DNA of 64,000 nt from Planctomycetota bacterium (lineage in GTDB: Bacteria; Planctomycetota; UBA1135; UBA2386). The stretch lies in assembly GCA_965228735.1 (NCBI GenBank), contig OZ245838.1:3008001-3072000 (forward strand), in the 5' to 3' direction. The translations under genes and the position numbers were made by a program. Each line of letters begins with the position of its first letter. Position 1 is the stretch's first letter. The notes under the pieces were generated by a model. It did not search any database. It saw nothing but the letters and a program-made list of their open reading frames with translations, and was not told where the DNA came from. Below, one piece after another: positions 2,887 to 58,179 of this stretch.

Positions 2887-5553
2887 TCACAGCGCGATGT
2901 CATTGACATCGTCGTAGCGCAACTGCAGCGGGATCCGGTGGACGACCTCGTCGTCGTCGTTCAGCAGCTGCAGTTCGACCGCCGTGTCCGGCACCTGGTA
3001 GACGGGTGAGCCACCCGATCGCACGGCCAGCCGGCGGAACGAGGAGATGACGTCCGGGCGGTGGACCGTGGTCACGATGGCCTGGCCCGCGGCATCCACG
3101 ACCTGCAGCTGCGTCACGCCGGCGGGGAACGTTCCGACGAGGCGGAACTTGCCCTGGCGCGCGACGACGATGCGCCCGTCGGCCCCGGGCGCGGGCACGT
3201 CGTGCGTGCCATCGACGATCCCGGGGCCGGTGAGCCACAGCCGCACCCCGCGCTGCGGACAATCGGTCACGCGCCACCGCCCTGCTGCATCGGTGCTCCC
3301 GGCCCGCGGCAGGGAGATGAACGTCGAGCTCGACGGTCCGCGCTCCGTCGTCGCGGTCACCGCGACCCGCACACCCTCGACCGGCTGGCCGAAACGGTCG
3401 ACGACCATGCCCGACAGCTCCGGCAGGATCGCGTCGACCGGCGCGCGCAGCACGACGTCGGTCGACCCGGCGGCAATCGGACCCGACTCGATCACGAGCA
3501 GCGACGTCGGTTCGACGATACGCAGCGAATACTCGCGCGGCAGGAGCGAGCCGATCTCGAAGGACCCGTCCGCGCCCGTCAACCACTCGCCGCCGCGCTG
3601 CCGCCCGTCGAGCCAGGCCTCGAGCGAACCGGTGAACGTGCCCCACGTCGTGCCGTCGTCGAGATAGACGTTGGCCTTCGCGAGTGGCTCGCCGTCCGGA
3701 CCGAGTGCGCGGCCACGGATCGTGAGCGGCTCGCCGCCGAGCGTCAGTGTCAGGTCCCGCCCGGCCGCGCGGTCGGCGCGCAACCGCGGCGCCAGCCCGT
3801 CCATGACCGCCGGCTGGAAGCCGACGAGGTGCGCCGTCACGGGTCCATCGAACCCGCTGCCGCCGATCTCGAACTCGAACCGCCCGTTCGCGTCGGCGGT
3901 CGCTCCCGTGCTGCCGAAGCGCACGTAGGCCTCGGCCGCGGGTCGACCGTCCGCGTGCCGGACGACGCCGGACACGATGGTGCGCTCGCTCGCCGGCGCG
4001 GCCCGCAGGGTCCAGGTGACGGGCGGCACGACCTCGTCCGCCGGAGTCGACAGCGTCACGTGACCGCGCTTCTGCGCCGTGACCCGCAGCAGCGCGTGGG
4101 CCGGAACCGTCCCGAGGTCGAACGTCCCGTCCGCGCTCGAGCTGTCGCTGAACGATCGATACCCCGACGAGTGCTCGAACCGCTGCGCGATGCCGGGCAG
4201 CGACTCGATGCTGTAGCCGACGCTGACGTACGCATCGTCGATCCCCGCCCCGTGGTCGTCGACGATGCGACCCGCAACGTGAACGGCCGGCCCGACGATC
4301 ATCGTCACCTGGCGGTCGTTCGGCAGCACGCCGTAGCCGTAGAGGATCCAGTCCGTCCCTGCGATGCGCAGATACTCGGCTTCGTCCGTGCCGACGATCT
4401 CGAACTGCCCGCGGCCATCGGTCGCGGCGCGCGGCCGCGTCGCCGTGCCGAGGAGCAACTGCTCGACGAACTCCGCATCGTGGCCGAACTGGCTCGCGAA
4501 ATGACGCCGCGCGGGTTCGATGGTGCGCAGCTGCTGCAGGTGGCCAGGCTCGAGCGTCATCGACATGTTCGGCCAACGCAGCTCGTTGCCGACGAGCTGC
4601 GGCAACTTCGGATCGAAGTGCACGACCTCGATGCCGGGCAGCGGCCGACCATCGACGGTCAGCACCTGACCCGCGAAGCGACCGCCCTCGGTCGGCGCGT
4701 CGACGTCCGTAGTCGATTCCGCAGCGGTCGCGACCGCTTCCCGCGTGGGTCTCGGATCCGCCGCGACGTCGGCGCGTTGGACGTTCGCCGCCGCCGTTGC
4801 CGTGGACCGGCCGGTCGAATCCGGCACGGGCTCGCGCCAGTCGACGCCGATGACTTCGAGACCGAGAACGAGCGCCAGCACGGCGCCCACGAGCGGCAAC
4901 ATCCACTTCATCGTGAGGCTCCCCAGGAGAACGATCATGGGAACGCCAGCACCGGCCGCAGCAGCGGTCGCCTTCGCCGCCCCGCGGGCGGAGAACAGCG
5001 GCAGCAACGCGGCACACCAGGCCTGCCGGTCGCCGAACTCGTCGTCGAGCCGCGCCCGCATGCGCTCGAGCCCGCGCTGGAGCTGCGTGCGCACCGTGTT
5101 CACGGGGCGGTCGAGACGTTCGGCGATCTGCCGCGGCTCGAGGTCGTCGAAGAAGCGGAGCAGCACCACGGTGTGATACGGCTCGTCGAGCTCGAACAGC
5201 TCGTCGACGAGGCGCTTGTGCGCGGCCGCGCGTTGCGCGGCCTCGGCCGGATCGTCGCTCGGGTCGTGCGCGCGAGCGGCCACCGATTCGGCGGCGACCG
5301 TTGCCTCACGACGACGACGACGACCGTCCTGGCGACCAAACCCGCGCGCGGCGTTCTTCGCGACCCGCGCGAGCCAACCCTTGGGATTGGTCAACGCGCG
5401 GGGCGGCCGCGTCATGGCCTCGAGCATCGTCTGCTGCGCGACGTCGTCGGCGCGCGAAGGATCGGCCACGAGGCTGCGCGCGAGCGCGCGGACCCAGTCC
5501 TGGTGGGCGAGCAGAGTGGCGATGGTCGAATCGGTTCCGGTCATGGCGTTCAC
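2887..5553 (-). CDS. ECF (sigma-70 family) sigma factor fused to a TM helix and extracytoplasmic carboxypeptidase-regulatory-like repeats
   Basis: N-terminal region 2 'WVRALARSLV.D...ADDVAQQTMLEA...GWLARVAKN' and region 4 'LDEPYHTVVLLRFFDDL...IAERLDRPVNTVRTQLQRG', then a TM segment 'WMLPLVGAVLALVLGL' and beta-sandwich repeats. Start is GTG 5553 or ATG 5544. Confidence 0.85.
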   Translation of the reverse strand: MNAMTGTDSTIATLLAHQDWVRALARSLVADPSRADDVAQQTMLEAMTRPPRALTNPKGWLARVAKNAARGFGRQDGRRRRREATVAAESVAARAHDPSDDPAEAAQRAAAHKRLVDELFELDEPYHTVVLLRFFDDLEPRQIAERLDRPVNTVRTQLQRGLERMRARLDDEFGDRQAWCAALLPLFSARGAAKATAAAAGAGVPMIVLLGSLTMKWMLPLVGAVLALVLGLEVIGVDWREPVPDSTGRSTATAAANVQRADVAADPRPTREAVATAAESTTDVDAPTEGGRFAGQVLTVDGRPLPGIEVVHFDPKLPQLVGNELRWPNMSMTLEPGHLQQLRTIEPARRHFASQFGHDAEFVEQLLLGTATRPRAATDGRGQFEIVGTDEAEYLRIAGTDWILYGYGVLPNDRQVTMIVGPAVHVAGRIVDDHGAGIDDAYVSVGYSIESLPGIAQRFEHSSGYRSFSDSSSADGTFDLGTVPAHALLRVTAQKRGHVTLSTPADEVVPPVTWTLRAAPASERTIVSGVVRHADGRPAAEAYVRFGSTGATADANGRFEFEIGGSGFDGPVTAHLVGFQPAVMDGLAPRLRADRAAGRDLTLTLGGEPLTIRGRALGPDGEPLAKANVYLDDGTTWGTFTGSLEAWLDGRQRGGEWLTGADGSFEIGSLLPREYSLRIVEPTSLLVIESGPIAAGSTDVVLRAPVDAILPELSGMVVDRFGQPVEGVRVAVTATTERGPSSSTFISLPRAGSTDAAGRWRVTDCPQRGVRLWLTGPGIVDGTHDVPAPGADGRIVVARQGKFRLVGTFPAGVTQLQVVDAAGQAIVTTVHRPDVISSFRRLAVRSGGSPVYQVPDTAVELQLLNDDDEVVHRIPLQLRYDDVNDIAL

Positions 5554-5648: not shown

Positions 5649-6929
5649 TTACGACCAGGCGTCGAGCAGCCGCCGGCACTCGGCGAGCAGCCAATCGGAC
5701 TCTTCGAACGGCCGCAGGCTGATGTCCTGCCACAGGATGCGCCCCTTCGGATCGACGAGGAACGTGCCGTGCAGCGCTTCGTCCGAGAACTCGTCCCAGC
5801 AGTTCCACTGCTTGAACACCGCGCCCTGCGGGTCGCACAGGACTTCGAAGTGCAGCGGATCGACGCCGTTCTCCTGCGCCGCCTGCCACGCCGCGCGCAC
5901 GGCGTTCTGATCGTCGGTGCCGATCGTCACGACCTCGATCCCGGCGGCGTTGAACTTCGGGGTCTTGGGTTCCAGCTCGACCAGCTGGGCGACGCAGTGC
6001 GCTCAACCAAAGCCGAGGAAGAACACGACGAGCACGGGTTTGCCCGCGTAGTCGGCGAGCTTGCCGCGACCGTTGAGGCCGCGGGGGAGATCGAATGCCG
6101 GGGCCTGCTGCGGCTGCCATTCCAAGCCGTCCTCACTGCCACCCATCAGGACCGTCAGCTTCGACAAGTGGCCGTCCGGGAGCCAAAGCCGTGGGAAGTG
6201 CAGCTGCGGATGCCGCGGCAGCCGCGGCGCCACCCGCGTGTTCAGGTCCAGGCGCGCACTACCGAGGCCGCCCACGGACTCGCTGTAGCCGGGAACCAGG
6301 AACGGCATCGCGGCCATCCGCCGCATGTAGCCGTTGGCCGCCGAGTAGAACGCTTCGAACGTCGCCAGCGATGGTGACGAGTCACCATCGCAGCCCGCCC
6401 TCGTCTTGGGCCCCAATGTTCGAGCCTGCTCGAATCCCGCGAGCCTCGCGGCCAACGAGCCGTCGATCTCGCGCAGCCGCGCAATCAGCGTCTCGGCACG
6501 CTCGACGGGCTCCTTCTGAAAACCCGCATCGACGAGCTCCGGCTGCCGATCGACTCCGAAGTACTCCCGATACGCTGCGACGATGGCCGCTTCGGGCGCC
6601 GGCGCCTTGCCGACGAACTTGTTCGCCTGCCACACGAGCCGCGCCGCGCGGTTGTTGTTCGACCGCAACGACAGCGCGAGCCCGAGATGCGCGATCGCCC
6701 GCTCCGGCTCGCGATGCGCGAGCTCGCGGAACATGCGGGCCGCCTCCCAGCCCCAACCCGCGGCGAGCCGTTCGAGGCCCGCGTCGAGCAGTTCGGTGCT
6801 CGACAATGCCGGATCCGGCCGGCGCCACGGCAGGTCCCGCGCCAGATCCTGCGCTCGCAACGGTGCTACCGCGCACGTCACGAGCAGCACGACCGTCGCG
6901 ACGGCGCGGAAACGAACTTCGGTTCGCAT
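5649..6929 (-). CDS. Secreted TPR + AhpC/TSA (redoxin) protein, predicted selenoprotein (U-x-x-C; TGA at 6005-6003)
   Basis: ORFs 6003-6929 and 5649-5930 are in the same frame, separated by a single TGA: ...VLVVFFLGFG-[TGA]-AHCVAQLVELEPKTPKFNAAGIEVVTIGTD...LHGTFLVDPKGRILW. The redoxin fold continues across the TGA, which sits at the first Cys of CxxC, and a hairpin follows. Confidence 0.85.
5972..5988 (-). promoter_or_regulatory. Candidate bacterial SECIS hairpin (CCAGCU-GGUCG-AGCUGG)
   Basis: Perfect 6-bp stem with a 5-nt GU-containing loop at +15 to +31 after the in-frame UGA. Confidence 0.7.
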
Positions 6930-9042: not shown

Positions 9043-11451
9043 TCAGCGCGGCGCGGCAACGTCCAGTCCCGTGACGCGCATCCCGGCGAAGTAATAGGGC
9101 TCCGCCCGGCCGGGCGCGCGGGCAACGGCACGCCGGGCCTCGAACATCGCCGCGCTGAACGTCTGCCCTTCGCTCCACCGCTGCAGTGCGCCAGCGAGCA
9201 GGTCGCGCGTCGCGCCGACCGACAGATCACCATGCGCGAGCGCCACACAGTCGGCGCCGGCGAGCAGGAACGCGCCGCCCAGATGGTTCACCCCACCGTC
9301 ACCGAGCCGGGACGGGCCCGCTGCTGCGCCGCAGACGCCGAGCATGACGAGCGGTGGCGCTGCAAGACTCTCGACACCATCGGGGAAGACGGGCTCCGCG
9401 CCAGCGAGCAGCACGCCGGCCGGTCGCTCGCGACGATAGTCGTAGACCCCGTGCGAGAACACGCAGAGGGCGCGCGCCGCAGCCGTCTCGCGATCGCGCA
9501 GAGCCGCCGGCGTCGCCCGCGCGCCCCAGAGCGCGCGCACACGATCCGCAGCGAACGGTGCCGTGAACCGCGACCGCCGCGCCGCCGACATGCCGATCGG
9601 TTCGACACCCCAGCGCGCAGCGGTCTCGACGTCGAACTCGGGATCCCCCACGACCGTCAGGTCCTTGCCATGGGCCGGCGCGCCCTTGGCGGCGCGGGCT
9701 TCACGGCGGAGCCGGAGCGCCTGCCCGACGGCGACCGACGGCAGGAAGCGCATCGGTGTCTGCAGGCACCACCAGCCGTCGCTCCACGGCAGCAGCTGGA
9801 ACGTGCGGCTCGACAGCTCCGGGCCGACGAGCACGACCTCGCGCCAGCCCGCGACCCGCTCGCGCACCGCCGGCGGCAGCAGATAACCCGCCACCCGCGT
9901 CGCGATCTCACGCACCGGCACCCCCGACGGGCGGCGGTCGAGACTGTCGCGCAGCGCGTAGGCATCGGGCCAGAACGCCCGCCCGAGCGGCAGCGTGTGA
10001 TGCTCCCCGCCGTTCTCGTCGATCAGGAGCAGCGACGCGGACCACGGGCTGAACACGAACATCAGCAGGCCGCCGCCGCTGGGGACCAGGCTGCGCGCGA
10101 CGTCCAGGCCGACCGGCGCGCCATCCGCGACGAGCCGGCGGGACAGGGTGCCGAGCGCGAACGCCGCCTCCATGTGGCCGAACGCGGCCGCGATCCCGCC
10201 ATCCCCTCCGGCCGTCGCCCGATCGAGCTCGAGCAACGTGCCGAGCAACACCCGCTGGTTGCCGTACTGCAACGCCCCTCCGCCGCCATGGCGCACCGGC
10301 CGCCGCCGCCAGGACTCGAGCCAGTCCCGGGTCGCCCGTTCGAGGTCACGATGCAGGGCGCGCAACTCGGCGCGCGGCCGTGCCGCGGCGAGCGCGGTAC
10401 GCGCGCGCAGGGCCAGGATCTCGGCGTCGGTCCTGGTCGGCTCCGTCGATTCGCCGAACAACTCGTCGAGCATCCGCTCCGCGCGCTCCGGATCGCCGAG
10501 CTCGAGACAGATCTCGACCGCGATGATGCCGGCGCGCAAGGCACTGCCACCGAGCAAGCGGACGCGCAACTTCAACAGGTCGTCTAGCACACTCGAGAGC
10601 GCCACGGCGTCGGCCGCGAGCTGATAGCGCGCGAGCAGCAAGCGATACTCGAGATCGGTGCGCTGCGACTCGTTCAGCCCGGCGAACGCAGAATCGGCGA
10701 GCGCGCCCCGAGCTCGCTTCTGCACGCGATCCGTTCGCCCGAGCGCGAGCTGGACATCGAGCTCGAGCACGAGCACGTAGTAGCGCCACCCCAGATCGTC
10801 CTTCACGAGCTCGGCGAGGGCTTCGAGGTCCCCGAACGCGCGGTCCGGCAGCCCGAGATCGAGATGGCAGCGAATCCGTTCGGTTCGCAGCTGCTGCCAC
10901 ATGTAGCGCGTCAGCGCGCCCCTCGAGCCCGCCTGCACCAGGCCCTCGTCCGCGGCCGCGAGCAGCTCGAGCCCTTCCCATGGTCGTTCTTCGAGCCGAA
11001 CGACGCTCGCCTGGTAGACCCGGGCGAGCGGGTGATACTGCTCGACCGGACTCGCGAGCACCGCCCGACAGCTCGCGCGCGCGACGTCGTAGGGCGCCTT
11101 TCGCAGGTCGGCGTCGATCTTGCCGATATGCGCCCGCACGGCGGCCACGGCCTCGGCCGACGGCTGCTGCGCTTCGGGCCCGACCGATGGTTGCTCGGTC
11201 TCGGCGCTCGCCGATGGCTTCGGCGCGGCCTCGACCGGCTCACCCCGATCGAACGCGCCGAGGATCGCAGCGCCCCAGATGCCCGCGCCGAGGACGACGG
11301 CGGCGGCGAACAGAACGCCGGCTCGGCCCGAAACGGACCGCCTCAGAAGAGCGGGTGACTCGCGACGAAGGTCTCGTTCCGGACGAACGCCGTCACCTGC
11401 CAGATCGCCGTCTGCGGCAGGCCGTCCAGTACGGCTTGGGTCAGTCGCCAT
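9043..11451 (-). CDS. CHAT-domain (caspase-like) protease with N-terminal TM anchor and TPR-like helical region
   Basis: Catalytic His 'VFSHGV' and Cys 'LVMLGVCGAA', followed by 'LGGAFLLAGADCV' and the C-terminal 'PYYFAGMRVTG'. N-terminal hydrophobic segment 'AGVLFAAAVVLGAGIWGAAIL'. Start uncertain: ATG 11451 overlaps the upstream gene by about 110 nt. Confidence 0.8.
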   Translation of the reverse strand: MATDPSRTGRPAADGDLAGDGVRPERDLRRESPALLRRSVSGRAGVLFAAAVVLGAGIWGAAILGAFDRGEPVEAAPKPSASAETEQPSVGPEAQQPSAEAVAAVRAHIGKIDADLRKAPYDVARASCRAVLASPVEQYHPLARVYQASVVRLEERPWEGLELLAAADEGLVQAGSRGALTRYMWQQLRTERIRCHLDLGLPDRAFGDLEALAELVKDDLGWRYYVLVLELDVQLALGRTDRVQKRARGALADSAFAGLNESQRTDLEYRLLLARYQLAADAVALSSVLDDLLKLRVRLLGGSALRAGIIAVEICLELGDPERAERMLDELFGESTEPTRTDAEILALRARTALAAARPRAELRALHRDLERATRDWLESWRRRPVRHGGGGALQYGNQRVLLGTLLELDRATAGGDGGIAAAFGHMEAAFALGTLSRRLVADGAPVGLDVARSLVPSGGGLLMFVFSPWSASLLLIDENGGEHHTLPLGRAFWPDAYALRDSLDRRPSGVPVREIATRVAGYLLPPAVRERVAGWREVVLVGPELSSRTFQLLPWSDGWWCLQTPMRFLPSVAVGQALRLRREARAAKGAPAHGKDLTVVGDPEFDVETAARWGVEPIGMSAARRSRFTAPFAADRVRALWGARATPAALRDRETAAARALCVFSHGVYDYRRERPAGVLLAGAEPVFPDGVESLAAPPLVMLGVCGAAAGPSRLGDGGVNHLGGAFLLAGADCVALAHGDLSVGATRDLLAGALQRWSEGQTFSAAMFEARRAVARAPGRAEPYYFAGMRVTGLDVAAPR

Positions 11452-12128
11452 TCGGTTGCTTGGATCGCGGACTTCTCGAACCGCGGGGTCGCGGTCGTGT
11501 CCGCGCTGGCGAACACGGCGAGAGTGTAGTCCGTCCCGGGTGGAATGCCGCCCCCGGGCAACTCGAGCGTCCACGAGAGGAGCAGCTCGGCACCATCCGC
11601 CTGGACCCGCAGCACGAGTTCTTCGTCACCGAGGGTCTGGTTATCGTCGTTCGTCGGTTGCGCGGGCCCGGAGAAGACGCCGACCGCCCACAGCAGCAGG
11701 ACAGCGGCGGCCGCCGCGCCCGCGAACATGCCGATGCGCGCCGGGCCGCGCCGCAGCGTCGCGGCCGTCGGTTCCTGGGTCCCGGATCCGCGCACCTCGG
11801 GTTCATCCGCACCGCCCGGCAGCGGCCGAACGGCACCGGTGTCGCCGCCACCGAGGGCGAGCTGCCGCAGGGTCCTCGCAACCGTCGACTCCTCGGCCGA
11901 GCTCGTCGCCATGGCCTCGGCCTCGGCGAGCAGTTCGCGCTCGCGTTCGGCATCGGTCGCCAGCTGACCCTGCACGTCCTGCAATTCGGTGAGCGCCGCC
12001 GCGAACGCGGGGTTCTGCGCGGCCGCGGCCGCAACGTCGGGATCGTCACCCGCACGCTCGCCGGTCACGACGGCCGCGAGCAGCTGCTCCTCGCGATCGG
12101 ACAGTGGTGTTCGTGGTGTTCCGGTCAT
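11343..12128 (-). CDS. Putative single-pass anti-sigma factor
   Basis: ATGA-coupled directly downstream of an ECF sigma. It has an N-terminal helical domain (MTGTPRTPLSDREEQLL...), a TM 'IGMFAGAAAAAVLLLWAVGVF' and a C-terminal beta-rich domain. Confidence 0.6.
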   Translation of the reverse strand: MTGTPRTPLSDREEQLLAAVVTGERAGDDPDVAAAAAQNPAFAAALTELQDVQGQLATDAERERELLAEAEAMATSSAEESTVARTLRQLALGGGDTGAVRPLPGGADEPEVRGSGTQEPTAATLRRGPARIGMFAGAAAAAVLLLWAVGVFSGPAQPTNDDNQTLGDEELVLRVQADGAELLLSWTLELPGGGIPPGTDYTLAVFASADTTATPRFEKSAIQATEWRLTQAVLDGLPQTAIWQVTAFVRNETFVASHPLF

Positions 12129-12724
12129 TCTCCGTCCTCCTCCCTGGACCGGTAGAAACGGCGCAACGAGTCGAGTCCGCGGTAGTACCGCGATTTGACA
12201 GTGTTCGGAGACAGCAGAAGTTGCGCAGCAATCTCGAGAAAAGTGAGGCCCTGGTAGTGCTTCTTCCGGATGACCTGCGCTTCCCCCGGTGGCAACGCGT
12301 CGATCCCCTGTTGCAGCCGCTCGGAGTCGGCGTCGAACTCCGGCGCGGGCGCGGCCAGCTCGGCGACGTCGTCGAGGGAGACGCCGGTCCGCGACCCGGA
12401 GCCGACGCGGCGCAACGCGTTGCGCATCTGGAAGTCGCAGATGCGGAACACCCACGTCTCGAGCGCGGCATCACCGCGATAGTCCGCGAGCCGGCGCCAG
12501 ACGACGGCGAGCACATCCTGCACGATGTCGTCGAGGATCTCGGGCGCGAGGCTCTGACGACGACGGGCCGCGAGGCACTTCACGAACCGTGGGACGCAGT
12601 GCATCCGCTCGATGAACTGGTCGAGCGCGTCGGGCTGGCGGGCCAGAACATCGGCCACGAGCGCGAGATCCGCCGTGGCCGGTGACCGCTCGCCGTCGCC
12701 CGCCTCAGCTCCGGACGCACCCAT
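12125..12724 (-). CDS. ECF RNA polymerase sigma factor
   Basis: 'DDIVQDVLAVVWRRLADYRGDAALETWVFRI' (region 2) and 'ALPPGEAQVIRKKHYQGLTFLEIAAQLLLSPNTVKSRYYRG' (region 4). Start uncertain. Confidence 0.9.
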   Translation of the reverse strand: MGASGAEAGDGERSPATADLALVADVLARQPDALDQFIERMHCVPRFVKCLAARRRQSLAPEILDDIVQDVLAVVWRRLADYRGDAALETWVFRICDFQMRNALRRVGSGSRTGVSLDDVAELAAPAPEFDADSERLQQGIDALPPGEAQVIRKKHYQGLTFLEIAAQLLLSPNTVKSRYYRGLDSLRRFYRSREEDGE

Positions 12725-12805
12725 GCAGCGACCCGCATTCGGGAAAAAGTGGGCGATCGGGCGAGCGGCGCCGGGCGGCAAACATGGCCACCCAGCATAG
12801 CGCCG

Positions 12806-14155: not shown

Positions 14156-16684
14156 TCACAACGTGACCCGACCACCCCCGGCCGGCACCGCCGCGCGCCG
14201 CACGATCGCGCCGTCGCGATAGCCCACGACCTGGACGGCCGTCGCCGGCAGCCGGAACGCCTCCGTCCGACCACCGAGGATCGGCACCCGATCCGTGCGC
14301 TGATTCTCGTTCCCGCGCGGGATGTCCACGACGAGCGCCCGCCCCGCGGCGTCGATGACCGCGACGAGCTCGACCGCGCCCGGCTCGACCACTTCGACGA
14401 CGAGCGTGTGCTCGCGCACCAACTGCACCTCGAGACCGCCTGCGATCGCCGCCTCGAGTTCGATCGTGCGGCCGACGTAGCCCGCGCGGTGCAGGCGCAG
14501 ACGCAGATCGCCGACCGGCACGTCGTAGAGGAAGAACTCGCCGTCCGGCCCGGTCACCATCGCGCCGCGGCGGTAGGACTGCCGGAACACCGGGTGGCCG
14601 GCGGCGCTGACCTCGCAGATCGAGAGGTCGATCGTGACGCCGACGCGCGCGAGCGGCCGACCGAGCTCGTCGACGACGCGGCCCCGGAGGCGTTCGTGCA
14701 CCGCGCTGCCGAGCTGCAACGTGACGTGGTCCGCGCCGGCTGCGATGGTCTGCGGGTCGGAGCGCAGCAACGTCTTCTCCTGCCCGGCGCGCACGACATA
14801 GTCGCGGGCGTCGAGCCCCGTGATCTCGAATGCGCCGTCCGCGCCCGTGATGGCAGGCCGCAGCGGCACGCCCCGGTCGCCGAGCAGGTCCTCGACGAAC
14901 TCCGGATGGCGCGCGTTCGGCGACCGACCGTTCGCCGACCGGGAGCGCTCGCCGATGCGACCGAGCGCGGTCTGGAGGCACGTCCGCTCGGCGAACGAGA
15001 ACGGCGTGGGATCCGTGATCCACACGCAGGCATTCCGCACCGGTCGCCCGCGACCGTCGACGACCTGACCGCGGATCGCGCGCGGCCGGTCACCGAGCTG
15101 CAGAACGAGTTCGCCGCGCTCGCGATCGAGGGCCGCCGACCGCGCGATCGACGCGGGCAGCCGCTCGGGCGCGACCGCGATGACGCGGTCGCCGACCGCC
15201 GTCCTCGGCAACCAGAAGCTGCCGGCGTGATCGGTCCGCGTCACGGCGTCGCCGCACGCCACGCGCACGTCACGCGCAGCCGAACCGTCGTGGTCGAGCA
15301 CGGTGCCGACGATCGCGCCGCGCGGCGCTGGTTCCCTGGACAGAACGACCTCGCACGTGGCCGCGGCCGGCAGCGCGGACCGCTCGATGCCGAAGCCCTC
15401 GCGGCGCACGACGAGCTGCGCGCCGGCGATCGCCGGGATCGCAGCGAGATCGAACCGGCCGTCCGCGCCGGTCGTCACCGCGAACGACTCGGTGCGGGCC
15501 GCCGCCACGCGCGCGCCGAACCGCGCGCGGAGTTCGGCGGGCAGCTCGATCGCCACCTCGGCGAGCGCGAGCGGCCGGTGGTTCATATCGACGATGCGCC
15601 CCGCGAGTCGCCGCCGCGGCGCAACGACGACACAGAGATCCGACCGCACCGCCGCCGTGCCCGCGACGGCTGCCAGGACCGTGACGACGTTCTCCGACAA
15701 CGCCGTCACGAAACCGCTGCCCGACGCCGCGAGCTCGAACGCCCCATCGGTGCCCGTCAACGCGATCTTCGTGCCGCGACCACGATCGCGTTCGGGCTCG
15801 AACCGCAGGACGAGGCCGGGCGCCGGCGCACCGTCGACCGACAACGCCACGCCAGCGAGCGCCCGTTCGGGCATCTTGACCGCGCCCCAGTCGATGCCGG
15901 CGTCCGACTGCACCCCGGCCGGAGTGCGATCCGGCATCGCCGGCGCCGGATCCTCGCCCGCCGTGCCCGCGGCGGCGGTCCGGGTCGGCGGCGGCGGCAC
16001 CGGCGTCGGCTCGGCGCTCCGCCACACACCCGTCGACCACAGCGCCAGCGCCGATACGGCAACGGCAGTCACGGCAGCAGTGACGATCGCGACACCAGCC
16101 ACGCTGCTCGACGGCACCACGCGATCGCCCTCGAGCCCGGGCACCAACGTGACGAGCGGCAACAGCGCCTGCCGTCGTTCCGCCGCGCCGCCGTAGCGAT
16201 CGTCGAGCTGACCGCGGAGCTGCTCGAGCCCGCGCTGCAGCCGGGTCTTCACCGTCGCGATCGGCATGGCCAGGGTGCGCGCGATCACGGTCGGCGACTC
16301 GTCGAGAAAGTAGCGCCGCAGCAGCACGAGGCGGTAGTGCTCCGGCATCCCCATCACGGCGTTGACGACCGCGCGATGGGCGTCGACGCGCTCCACGAGC
16401 TCCGCGCTGCTCGGCTCCTCCTCGGGGCGGATGGCCGCGGCCTCACGGCAGGTGCGGCGCTCGTCGCGACGAACGCGCTCCCACAACACGTTCCGCAGGA
16501 CCCGCGACAGCCAGGCGCGCGGCGAACGGATCTCGACGGGATCCGCCTCGAGTGCCGCCAGCATCGTCTCCTGCGCCAGATCGTCGGCGTCATCGGGATC
16601 GCGCACGAGCTGCGCCGCGAGCGCCCGCACCCAGTTCGTGTGTTCGAGCAGGGTGTCGAGCGCGAGTTCGGGAGAACGGGCCAT
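14156..16684 (-). CDS. ECF sigma factor fused to a TM helix and carboxypeptidase-regulatory-like repeats (paralog of 2887-5553)
   Basis: 'LLEHTNWVRALAAQLVRDPDDADDLAQETMLAAL...AWLSRVLRN' and 'MPEHYRLVLLRRYF...IARTLAMPIATVKTRLQRG'; TM 'VAIVTAAVTAVAVSALALW'. Confidence 0.85.
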   Translation of the reverse strand: MARSPELALDTLLEHTNWVRALAAQLVRDPDDADDLAQETMLAALEADPVEIRSPRAWLSRVLRNVLWERVRRDERRTCREAAAIRPEEEPSSAELVERVDAHRAVVNAVMGMPEHYRLVLLRRYFLDESPTVIARTLAMPIATVKTRLQRGLEQLRGQLDDRYGGAAERRQALLPLVTLVPGLEGDRVVPSSSVAGVAIVTAAVTAVAVSALALWSTGVWRSAEPTPVPPPPTRTAAAGTAGEDPAPAMPDRTPAGVQSDAGIDWGAVKMPERALAGVALSVDGAPAPGLVLRFEPERDRGRGTKIALTGTDGAFELAASGSGFVTALSENVVTVLAAVAGTAAVRSDLCVVVAPRRRLAGRIVDMNHRPLALAEVAIELPAELRARFGARVAAARTESFAVTTGADGRFDLAAIPAIAGAQLVVRREGFGIERSALPAAATCEVVLSREPAPRGAIVGTVLDHDGSAARDVRVACGDAVTRTDHAGSFWLPRTAVGDRVIAVAPERLPASIARSAALDRERGELVLQLGDRPRAIRGQVVDGRGRPVRNACVWITDPTPFSFAERTCLQTALGRIGERSRSANGRSPNARHPEFVEDLLGDRGVPLRPAITGADGAFEITGLDARDYVVRAGQEKTLLRSDPQTIAAGADHVTLQLGSAVHERLRGRVVDELGRPLARVGVTIDLSICEVSAAGHPVFRQSYRRGAMVTGPDGEFFLYDVPVGDLRLRLHRAGYVGRTIELEAAIAGGLEVQLVREHTLVVEVVEPGAVELVAVIDAAGRALVVDIPRGNENQRTDRVPILGGRTEAFRLPATAVQVVGYRDGAIVRRAAVPAGGGRVTL

Positions 16685-16696
16685 GGGTATCCGGCG

Positions 16697-16726
16697 GGTC
16701 GCCGCCGCCGCGCCACGGGACTCGCG
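16697..16726 (-). promoter_or_regulatory. Candidate ECF promoter, copy 3 (CGCGAGTCC-N13-CGGCGACC)
   Basis: Ends 12 nt upstream of the ATG of the second sigma fusion. Confidence 0.6.
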
Positions 16727-16747
16727 AACCGGTATTCTTGCAGAACT

Positions 16748-16777
16748 CGTGAGTCCGTCGCCGCTCCGGCGACGACT
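16748..16777 (+). promoter_or_regulatory. Candidate ECF promoter, copy 4 (CGTGAGTCC-N13-CGACGACT)
   Basis: Back-to-back with copy 3 and oriented toward thioredoxin paralog B. Confidence 0.6.
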
Positions 16778-16886
16778 CTCCTGGGTGGCGGTTCCCGTCC
16801 CACCCGCCACGAGACCCCTCCGACCACGCTCCGCCAGGTCCTCCCGCATGCCCAACCACGGCCCACGATCTCTCGTATCTTGCTGC

Positions 16887-18053
16887 ATGCAAGGTGTTTA
16901 CGCGATCATTGGCGCGATCGTCCTGGCCGCCCCGGTGACGGCCGGCCAACAGGCACCGGACGCTGACGGGTCCGCCGGCGCCGCGGGCGCGACGATCGAA
17001 TGGCAGAGCGGCGAACTGACCAAGAGCCTCGCCCGCGCCGAACTCGCGGGGCAGCCGCTGCTGCTCTACTTCTGGATGGATGGCAGCCAGCACTGCCAGA
17101 ACCTCTGGGGCCAGACCCTGACCCAGCCCGCGGCGGTGACCGCGCTCCAGCAGTTCGTGTGCCACAGCGCCGACGTCGCGACGCCGGCCGGCAGCAAGCT
17201 CGTGCAACGGTTCGGCATCAAGACGCTGCCGAGTCTGCTCGTCGTCACGGCGAACGGCGCGGTCGATGACGCGATGCTCGGCTTCGTGCCGCTGGCCGCG
17301 TTCTTGAGCGAGGCGCAGCGCATCACGAACGGCACGGGCACCGTCACCGCGCTGCGGGCCGCCGTCGACGCCGCACCCGACGATCTCGACCGCCGCTTCG
17401 CGCTCGGCCAGAAGCTCGAGTTCGTCGGCGACGAGGCGGCCGGCGACGCGATGTTCCAGTCGATTCGCGCGGCCGACCCCGAGGGCCGCACGACACCGGG
17501 CGCCGAACTGCTGTTGTTCGACATCCGCAATCAGATCCTCGACCGCGCGTCGGATCGGAACGACCCGGCGACGTGGGACCTCGCGCCGCTCTACCGTCGA
17601 CTGCGGCAGACGAAGCAACCAACGGTGCTGTGGAAGGGCTGGAGCTTCCTCTCGCGGATCGAAGGCGAACGCGGCGCGCCGCGCGAACAGGTCGCGGCCT
17701 ACGCCGCGGCGTGGCCGCACGCGCCCGCGGTCGAACGCGACGAATGGGGCTCGAACGTCGTCGAGAACCTCTGGAGCCGCCGCGACACGGTGCGCGCCGC
17801 CGGTCGCAAGCTGGCGCGCGAGATCGCGCGCACGCTCGCCGCACACGCGGACGCGCCGGCCGCTGATCCGGCGGGCAACGGCAGAAAGCCGCCCACGGCC
17901 GAGCAACGCGCGTTTTTCCTCGCGTCCGCGGCGCGCGGCATGGCCCTCGGCGGGCGGCGACGGGCCGCCCTCGACCTCGTCGCCAAAGCTCGCGAACTCA
18001 CGCCCGACGACGCGGCCCTCGAACAGCTGCAGCAGCAGATCGAGCGCCGCTGA
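16887..18053 (+). CDS. Secreted thioredoxin-like (SxxC) + TPR-like protein, paralog B
   Basis: Signal peptide; 'IEWQSGELTKSLARAELAGQPLLLYFWMDGSQHCQNLW...FGIKTLPSLLVVTANG'. Aligns by eye with 12836-14026 (WDL.PLY, G.GTV..LR). Confidence 0.8.
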   Translation: MQGVYAIIGAIVLAAPVTAGQQAPDADGSAGAAGATIEWQSGELTKSLARAELAGQPLLLYFWMDGSQHCQNLWGQTLTQPAAVTALQQFVCHSADVATPAGSKLVQRFGIKTLPSLLVVTANGAVDDAMLGFVPLAAFLSEAQRITNGTGTVTALRAAVDAAPDDLDRRFALGQKLEFVGDEAAGDAMFQSIRAADPEGRTTPGAELLLFDIRNQILDRASDRNDPATWDLAPLYRRLRQTKQPTVLWKGWSFLSRIEGERGAPREQVAAYAAAWPHAPAVERDEWGSNVVENLWSRRDTVRAAGRKLAREIARTLAAHADAPAADPAGNGRKPPTAEQRAFFLASAARGMALGGRRRAALDLVAKARELTPDDAALEQLQQQIERR

Positions 18054-56591: not shown

Positions 56592-56724
56592 CGAGACCTC
56601 CTGTGATCCGAAGTAGCCACGCGGTCCGTTCGCGTCCTCGAATTACCGGTGTACGATCCGTTAAGCACTGCGAATCGACGGCCGCACGTTTCGGGGCGAG
56701 CCGCTACACTGCGGGCCGCTTCTG

Positions 56725-58179
56725 ATGACCCCGGAGATCCTCATGCGAAGTCACCTCCAGCTCTCGGCACCGGCGCTCGCCGGCCTGCTGTTCCTGCCCG
56801 CCACCCTCGCGCAGTCCGCCGACTCCCGATCGAACGGGATCGAACGACCGGAGTTCGCCGCCCCGGTGCGGCTGCAGGCCGGCAAGGAGTTCCTCGGTCA
56901 GGGGCGCCTCTACCCCTCGCCGGTCTATCACGACATGAACGGCGACGGCCGGCTCGACATCGTCGTCGGCGACCTCTGGGGCAAGCTCACGGTAGCGCTG
57001 CGCGAGCCTGGCAGCTCGCCCGCGATCGCCGGCGAGACCAAGCTCAACGGCACCGATGGCGAGGTGCTCGACTTCGCCAACTGGTGATGCATCGGCATGA
57101 GTCCACAGTTCGTGGACTTCAACGCCGACGGCCACCTGGACATCGTCGCGGGCACGTTCTCGGGCTCACCGTGGATCGCGTTCGGCACGAAGGATGGCTT
57201 CGCGCAACCGGGTATGATCCACGACCGGAGCGGCGAGCGCATCGTGCTCAACCAGTTCTGGAACTACGACACCAAGAAGTGGGACTCGACGACGCGCTGC
57301 AATCCTGCCGGCGAGGAACTCGGCAACGGCCACGGCACGTCGGCGCTCGCGTTCGATCACGACGGTGACGGCGACTTCGACCTGTTGCTCGGCGACTACG
57401 ACACGGGTCACCTGTTCCTGCGCCGCAACGAGGGCAGCAACGCCGAGCCGAAGTTCGCGACGCACAACGAGCTCGTCCGGGCCGGCGGCGAGCCGATCAA
57501 CGTCGGCAAGATGGCGACGATGCGCGCGCTCGACTGGAACGGTGACGGCCACCAGGATCTCCTGATCGGCAGCTTCGGCGACAGCTACGGCCCCGGCACG
57601 GGCGGCGGCGTCTGGCTGTTCCCCGGCGCGACCCGCGCGGACAACGGCGACGCGCAGTTCGGCGCGCCCGTGACCTTCGTCGACCCGAGCAAGAAGGACG
57701 GCAGCGGCCCCGCGCGCCCGGACACCGGGCTCTACGCCGACGCGGCCGATCACGACGGCGACGGCGACCTCGATCTGATCGTCGGCGGCTACGCGATGTG
57801 GCAGCCGAAGAAGCCCACGCTCGGGCCCGACGAGGAGCGCGAGCTGGAAGGGCTGCGGAAGGACCACGAGGAAGCTCTCGCGCGCAATCGCGAGCTCAAC
57901 CTGGCGTTCTACGCGGCGCTCGAGGAGGTCCCCGAAGCCGACAAGGCGGCGATGCGCGCGAAGCTCATCAAGGCTCAGAAGGACCAGCGCGCCGAGGTGT
58001 CGCAGAAGCTCTCGAAGATCAACGAGCGCCTGACGGAGCTCGACCCCGGCATGCAGCGGCAGGCCTTCGTGTGGCTCTACGAGAACCTCGCGGTGAGCAC
58101 GCCCGCCACGCCTGGCCCCGATGGCCAAGAACAGGGTGGCGAGCAGGGACAGGGCGGCGAGCAGGGCGGAGTGCGCTGA
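56725..58179 (+). CDS. Secreted FG-GAP/VCBS-repeat protein, predicted selenoprotein (W-U-C; TGA at 57085-57087)
   Basis: ORFs 56725-57087 and 57097-58179 are in frame: ...EVLDFANW-[TGA]-CIGMSPQFVDFNADGHLDIV.... FG-GAP repeats lie on both sides (DMNGDGRLDIV; DFNADGHLDIV, DHDGDGDFDLL, DWNGDGHQDLL, DHDGDGDLDLI). No RBS before 57097; SECIS-like hairpin follows. Start may be ATG 56743. Confidence 0.75.
57100..57118 (+). promoter_or_regulatory. Candidate bacterial SECIS hairpin (AGUCCAC-AGUUC-GUGGACU)
   Basis: Perfect 7-bp stem with a 5-nt GU-containing loop at +13 to +31 after the in-frame UGA. Confidence 0.7.

Follow-up and report, generated by a model that had tools for sequence, protein, structure and literature searches.

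A very likely selenocysteine codon splits the databases' version of an exported-looking, TPR-like and peroxiredoxin-like protein in a Planctomycetota bacterium

The window analysed here is a 64-kb stretch of the Planctomycetota genome G000 (all coordinates refer to it unless stated otherwise). On its minus strand lies a frame of 426 codons that runs from 6929 to a TAA stop at 5649-5651 and contains one internal TGA, codon 309, in the translated context VVFFLGFG*AHCVAQL. Does this TGA terminate a protein, or does it specify selenocysteine (Sec) in the active site of a longer one? The initial annotation had proposed a UxxC selenoprotein with an AhpC/TSA domain, the TGA occupying the place of the first Cys of a CxxC motif and the redoxin fold continuing in frame to 5649. 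The Pfam AhpC-TSA match, well above its cut-off, covers residues 274-399 and runs across the TGA. The scores were 74.7 bits for PF00578 and 53.7 bits for PF08534, against cut-offs of 26 and 26.6. The positions of all features are collected in Table 1.

Table 1. Features of the selenoprotein candidate and its neighbour, in window coordinates
Feature	Position	Strand	Basis or remarks
Whole gene, 426 codons + TAA, one TGA read through	5649..6929	-	Frame; end-to-end alignment with Cys orthologues
Predicted signal peptide, residues 1-26	6852..6929	-	Basic n-region, hydrophobic 10-24, ..LRA/QD junction
TPR-like helical domain (predicted), about residues 40-160	6450..6812	-	AF2 model; alignment to N-terminus of long TPR-type paralogue
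AhpC/TSA (Prx-like) redoxin domain, residues 274-426	5652..6110	-	PF00578 E 8e-21; nearest solved relatives 2-Cys peroxiredoxins
In-frame TGA, predicted Sec309, UxxC position 1	6003..6005	-	Among other orthologues, Cys in 14 and TGA in 4
Cys312, UxxC position 2	5994..5996	-	Aligns with peroxidatic Cys of peroxiredoxins
Candidate bacterial SECIS	5972..5988	-	6-bp stem, 5-nt loop starting GG, 20 nt after TGA, -8.8 kcal/mol
His387	5769..5771	-	Stands where peroxiredoxins have the catalytic Arg
ECF sigma with C-terminal carboxypeptidase-regulatory-like repeats	2887..5553	-	Sigma70_r2/r4 + CarboxypepD_reg; about 95 nt downstream, co-oriented

Full-length Cys orthologues (410-450 aa) aligned end to end with the 426-codon frame. 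A database search with residues 255-426 as query returned 72 matches, with lengths of 234-746 only; in 66 of them a pattern match placed a Cys of a CxHC motif at the position of residue 309, in agreement with the G-C-x-H-C expected by the initial annotation. Three others terminated exactly at FFLGFG (99%, 72%, and 47% identical) and the last three escaped the motif pattern. As had also been anticipated, the gene is split in the databases, into a piece of 308 aa and a piece of 93 aa that lacks the active site. A 405-aa database version, P0074, had to be discarded: it is 21 residues short, the entire active site included, and omits 63 nt (5985-6047) that hold the active site and the TGA, with GC as their first two letters and AG as their last. 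This gap is likely an intron invented by the gene caller to bypass the TGA, and the resulting joint was absent from the contigs of four sequencing runs.

Those same contigs spoke against a sequencing error, which we could rule out: in all four runs covering the site (at most four studies, three of them near-identical and possibly the source itself, and one a strain with 19 differing letters) the TGA was unchanged and free of indels. Pseudogenization was likewise ruled out. The 116 codons downstream of the TGA contain no stops, pN was 0.13-0.25 and pS 0.39-0.46 in comparisons with all four other TGA orthologues, and seven of the eight strain differences in this half were silent; the downstream half is under purifying selection. 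Thus, neither the sequencing error nor the inactivated downstream half named by the initial annotation as possible refutations was found. Were the TGA a true stop, translation would yield a shortened TPR-like protein, leaving the 3' half as either a pseudogene or a separate 93-aa gene. The two database pieces are compatible with this, as is the fact that TGA is the commonest stop in G000 (1660 of 2518 training ORFs). However, the stop is always TGA and always at the catalytic Cys, across lineages that do not form one clade, and the same TGA occurs in two distant paralogues, while the 93-aa piece has no active site and selection acts downstream, so that termination at this codon appears exceedingly improbable.

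The absence of Sec machinery, which would also have spoken against the selenoprotein, was not observed either: selA, selB, selD, and tRNA-Sec were all detected above curated cut-offs in G000, where selD carries an in-frame TGA of its own. Together with the TGA/Cys column, this upholds the initial proposal of a UxxC selenoprotein, and UGA309 is almost certainly read through as Sec, as far as sequence can tell. The gene very likely encodes one exported redox protein with Sec in its active site, split by the databases at the UGA.

The candidate SECIS element is encoded by the codons for Q-L-V-E-L. It falls within every limit of the bacterial SECIS model as given in the available text of PMC13188914 (loop of 3-9 nt with G in the first two loop positions, stem of 4-16 bp, spacing of 16-37 nt, and -7.5 kcal/mol or lower). 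All five TGA orthologues have such a hairpin of 6-7 bp (-8.8 to -10.0 kcal/mol), with a G-starting loop from +21/+22, against none of the 14 Cys orthologues, the best of which reached -4.1 kcal/mol, a contrast whose independence is overstated because the orthologues are kin. As background, a hairpin of this kind followed 147 of 4317 ordinary Cys codons (3.4%); in the Sec-AhpC of G000 the hairpin loop likewise lies at +21. The hairpin was not more stable than in shuffled sequences (z -0.43 at 43 nt), was absent from the minimum-energy fold of 80 nt, and was backed by a single compensatory pair, a score at least equalled in 81 of 500 shuffles. One Cys orthologue (G068) retains a weak 5-bp version, perhaps a vestige of the element or else its forerunner. 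The Rfam scan gave no match near the gathering score, the promoter scan no match, and the terminator scan a single terminator-like match at chance level.

To which class does the redoxin domain belong? Peroxiredoxins possess a conserved catalytic Arg, and TlpA/ResA oxidoreductases a WCxxC motif together with a cis-Pro motif. Alignment to solved peroxiredoxins set FFLGFG-U-AHC against FFYPADFTFVC: Sec309 faces the Thr of the peroxiredoxin TxxC, the Pro is missing, and the motif PxxxTxxC is absent. A His occurs at position 387 in 66 of 70 proteins (the other four escaped the pattern). No NCBIfam model reached its cut-off, the best matches, all far below, being AhpC, PrxU, and SelL-related. The 2-Cys peroxiredoxins and AhpC proteins, including Sec forms (TxxU; PrxU NF040737), are the nearest in solved fold and sequence and share the peroxidatic position with Cys312, but they differ from our protein by the residue at the Sec position, the PxxxTxxC motif, and the Arg, and scores were 38-40 bits against cut-offs of ~270. 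A true peroxiredoxin or AhpC can therefore be ruled out; of the AhpC/TSA-type redoxin originally proposed, the domain and its UxxC stood, the AhpC identity did not. Membership of TlpA/ResA was rejected as well. The proteins of the TlpA/ResA/DsbE group share with ours an exported thioredoxin fold (predicted here), the (U/C)xxC motif, structural matches, and a weak ResA match (NF002854, 26.7 bits against a cut-off of 170). However, their W-C-x-x-C contrasts with FLGFG-U-AHC, and the WPTIY of the TlpA-type proteins of G000 with LHGTF. Because the Pro and PxxxTxxC are absent, His387 replaces Arg, and no NCBIfam cut-off was reached, the protein is likely a Prx-like oxidoreductase, with a thioredoxin-type UxxC on a peroxiredoxin scaffold, and not a peroxiredoxin.

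Prx-like UxxC selenoproteins have been catalogued as a class since about 2005. Table 1 of PMC13188914 lists PF00578 UxxC as 'Prx-like thiol:disulfide oxidoreductase', and contains PF00578 UxxC/UxxU and PF08534 UxxC (redoxin-family) selenoproteins. To judge from these table descriptions rather than from sequences, they have in common with the window's gene the Pfam domain, the UxxC, an in-frame UGA with a bacterial SECIS-type hairpin, and Cys homologues, whereas the leader and the TPR-like domain distinguish ours. A TPR fusion is not named in that table (no occurrence of 'tpr' or 'tetratricopeptide'), and other Prx-like fusions appear in the available text of PMC2398784, where TPR has no occurrence. 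Our literature searches, which covered few subscription journals, did not surface the family of the window's gene. The combination of a leader, a TPR-like domain, and a Prx-like UxxC domain with His for Arg is a new architecture in a catalogued class; its recognition repairs a split annotation and adds one architecture to that class.

Residues 1-26 resemble a signal peptide, with the most hydrophobic 15-mer at residues 10-24, and 24 of the 45 short-form matches had the motif [AG]Q[DN][PLR] among their first 60 aa. The protein is thus predicted to be exported, as first annotated, on the grounds of hydrophobicity and an AQD-type junction. The accompanying idea that an exported form is less usual did not hold for this organism, in which several other TGA-split thioredoxin-fold candidates bear leader-like N-termini. 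The fusion to TPR repeats could be retained only as a predicted TPR-like fold and as homology to TPR-bearing long forms, since Pfam detected no TPR on the window protein and a single weak one among the 19 orthologues (E 0.01). The AF2 model of the full chain (pTM 0.82) consisted of a helical N-terminal half and a redoxin domain. The top matches to a model of residues 27-270 were TPR domains (Tah1, Z 11.0, rmsd 2.9, 89 aligned), although for helical repeats a Z under about 13 can reflect a common arrangement, and the best Foldseek match for the N-terminal model was the TPR domain of CHIP (E 0.03).

These long forms are uncurated TPR + AhpC/TSA 'redoxin domain' proteins of ~750-900 aa from Planctomycetota and Verrucomicrobiota, homologous to the window protein over its N-terminus and redoxin domain (hhalign, 100%, E 3e-73). 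They share with it the motifs LGFG-C-xHC and LHGTF, and up to 7 of 15 showed weak TPR matches; Atlas clusters of this family have up to 2192 members. Compared with them, the short form is missing ~370 aa and all four of the long form's His-rich motifs (0 of 46 short proteins). By sequence, the window's gene is a shortened form of this ~800-aa TPR + redoxin family. A Cys copy of the long form is present in G000. Long forms are almost all Cys, with two TGA genes among the class matches, both with the TGA at the same active-site position (L066 4936-7233 in G046, and L067 in G066) and both in genomes that retain Cys copies as well. In the G046 gene the same hairpin arises from Q-L-Q-E-L, with the bottom pair swapped and a loop without an early G; the G066 gene had no hairpin by the rule applied here.

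What might such a protein do? Our preferred model, held with moderate confidence, is an exported, SECIS-dependent UxxC selenoprotein of 426 residues that would reduce oxidised thiols of envelope proteins bound to its TPR-like domain. UGA309 would be decoded as Sec via SelB bound to the hairpin 20 nt downstream. With the client, an envelope protein, positioned by the TPR-like domain, Sec309, which would sit at the thioredoxin nucleophile position (the Thr of the Prx TxxC), may attack a disulfide or other oxidised sulfur on it, and Cys312 would resolve the adduct to yield a selenenylsulfide. His387 would stand beside the site in place of the Prx Arg. Electrons might come from a DsbD-type carrier, and G000 has a DsbD-like gene with a UxxC of its own; the Cys orthologues likely perform the same job. 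We infer this reaction, whose type is uncertain because the cis-Pro motif is absent and the nearest solved relatives are peroxidases.

Alternatively, the same selenoprotein could be an envelope peroxidase, a Prx-like/SelL-type UxxC enzyme that reduces H2O2 or organic hydroperoxides and is localised through its TPR part. We think this rather unlikely. The nearest solved structures by both sequence and fold are 2-Cys peroxiredoxins, the best sub-threshold NCBIfam matches fit a peroxidase, and the gene is found in coral and macroalgae metagenomes, where oxidative stress may be expected. RNA data sets did not appear among the listed sources of the gene. However, PxxxTxxC and the catalytic Arg are absent, and G000 already has a Sec-AhpC and two Sec-BCP candidates. 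It might also be possible that the ligand or substrate of the U/C-x-x-C and His387 site is a metal or metalloid instead of protein thiols, given the near-invariant His beside it and the His-rich motifs of the long paralogue. But the short form has lost all four of these motifs, and the His inside the U/CxHC motif is Gln in two of the five TGA forms, which makes this alternative quite improbable.

The initial annotation had also drawn attention to the ECF sigma downstream. The tight, co-oriented arrangement was confirmed, but a meaningful tie was not: the sigma is adjacent in only one of the 18 other orthologue loci, in a genome of the same genus (G060), and an ancestral link is ruled out. The conserved neighbour, found within about 3.3 kb in 17 of the 18 other loci, is a convergent pair of LVIVD/choice-of-anchor-B-like and YncE-like propeller genes (63-90% identity). 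In G000 the pair lies 10.5 kb from the gene, just before the window (G000 3000160-3003158). Since it is on the opposite strand, it may be plain synteny. The sigma stands between the gene and these conserved neighbours and thus appears to have been inserted later, within part of a single genus; it is probably a neighbour and not part of the system. A role of the protein as dedicated redox sensor or regulator of this membrane-anchored sigma would fit the orientation, the spacing, and the shared adjacency in G060. It is very improbable given the lack of adjacency in 17 of 18 other loci (including three of the four other TGA forms), the apparent later insertion, and the 15 similar sigma matches in G000. 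As a separate observation, the sigma belongs to a signalling cluster (2887-5553, 9043-12781, and 14156-16888). This cluster, which is syntenic in G060, comprises two ECF sigma genes with fused carboxypeptidase-regulatory-like repeats, a further gene resembling a sigma, and one encoding a CHAT domain.

Although the selenoprotein case itself is fairly ordinary, the switching of its relatives between Sec and Cys is of main interest. Of the 91 genomes in the family set, 22 matched at 1e-45 and 19 had a short orthologue, with TGA in five (G000, G059, G060, G010, and G062, from three genera; identities down to 44%) and Cys in 14. In the TGA orthologue of G062 (L070:6679-9276, minus strand) the frame continues into a BNR/sialidase-like domain, which may be a fusion or an assembly artefact. 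Seven of 140 matches in 339 genomes of the class had TGA, all within the same family and two being the long paralogues; among 53 matches in a 401-genome sample of the phylum, TGA occurred in the window's gene only. In JGI metagenomes, a DNA pattern scan for TGA forms gave no matches, and a protein-based scan found at least eight loci, of which the seven inspected had Cys. The Cys forms are not explained by absent machinery, since selA was present in all 19 genomes bearing a short orthologue and selB in 83 of the 91 family genomes.

A tree of 29 full-length rows (LG+G4, site 309 masked, g16 genomes G026, G032, and G034 excluded) required four changes for its six Sec rows, one of which, P0071, was counted as Sec because the protein ends at the motif (the codon itself was not seen). 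The six formed a single group in none of 200 bootstrap trees, and an AU test rejected one Sec clade (p 1.5e-8); a domain-only tree was poorly resolved. The Sec forms are not one clade, and the tree is compatible with gains or losses. Both paths have precedent in the available text of PMC1794560, which reports Prx-like families where Cys has changed to Sec repeatedly, as well as reverted genes that retain SECIS remnants. Tentatively, and with more doubt than confidence, we suggest repeated independent Sec gains, made possible because the family's own helix codes the SECIS: in the Q-L-x-E-L hairpin, codon x forms the loop, and an Asp-to-Glu change plus TGC-to-TGA would switch a Cys enzyme to a selenoenzyme. 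The gene would then form part of a redox network of exported selenoproteins, within a Planctomycetota family rich in selenoproteins (35 or more genes in G000, several of them from uncatalogued families). Nature provides here a set of Sec and Cys orthologues from genomes that all possess selA, with which one could test how easily a bacterial SECIS emerges inside a coding region and what advantage Sec brings to an envelope redoxin.

The host lineage offers the larger lead, given the wide presence of selB in the family and dozens of TGA-split redox genes in G000. In a rough scan of this genome, 217 TGA sites were flanked on either side by coding-like sequence, and at 76 of them a hairpin reached -6 or better. 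A Cys three residues away together with a hairpin at or below -7.5 accompanied 13 of the 217 TGA sites, as compared with 1 of the 291 TAG sites and none of the 23 TAA sites. We picked 34 candidates by hand for scans against protein-family models (loci L086-L116); many were TlpA-like, deiodinase-like, BCP, MsrA, AhpD-like, SelL-like, Grx, and HMA or DsbD-like proteins, many had leader-like N-termini, and 14 had no NCBIfam match at 1e-8. Counting SelD, AhpC, a second BCP, and the window's gene, G000 has about 35-38 selenoprotein gene candidates, and the family looks selenoprotein-rich. The main text of the 2026 review PMC13188914 names other phyla as selenoprotein-rich and leaves Planctomycetota/Planctomycetes unmentioned. 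According to the accessible part of PMC4807772, two planctomycetes possess Sec machinery and 13 candidates, including Prx/AhpC-type and ASPIC-UnbV/FG-GAP genes; as they are given only by IMG id, a homologue of the window's family may be among them.

Several of the other candidates deserve mention, the first two of which were also followed into relatives. A second one in the window (56665-58176, plus strand, TGA at 57085) encodes a leader and FG-GAP repeats, with the context FANW-U-CIGMSPQF and a hairpin. One in-frame TGA, whatever its exact position, was counted in 90 of 91 matches to this gene, from 72 of the 91 family genomes, and G000 has two paralogues (L106 and L110). Table 1 of PMC13188914 does not name this U-C family; S9 of PMC4807772 includes FG-GAP/ASPIC-UnbV candidates. 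A cobalamin-independent methionine-synthase-like gene (L089:49-1197, plus strand; G000 1761498-1762646) has a TGA in RRTFM-U-ATL and a hairpin, with TGA in 14 of 34 family matches, at the same site in the six inspected; such a selenoprotein is absent from the PMC13188914 table. Locus L086:30-662 (minus strand; G000 1929-2561) encodes a small protein that looks exported and whose two HMA-like repeats contain two TGAs in frame; Pfam and NCBIfam gave no match to it at the thresholds used. Finally, L023/L024 (G000 ~204570-205726) hold a tandem AhpC-like pair with Cys in one copy and TGA in the other at the peroxidatic position.
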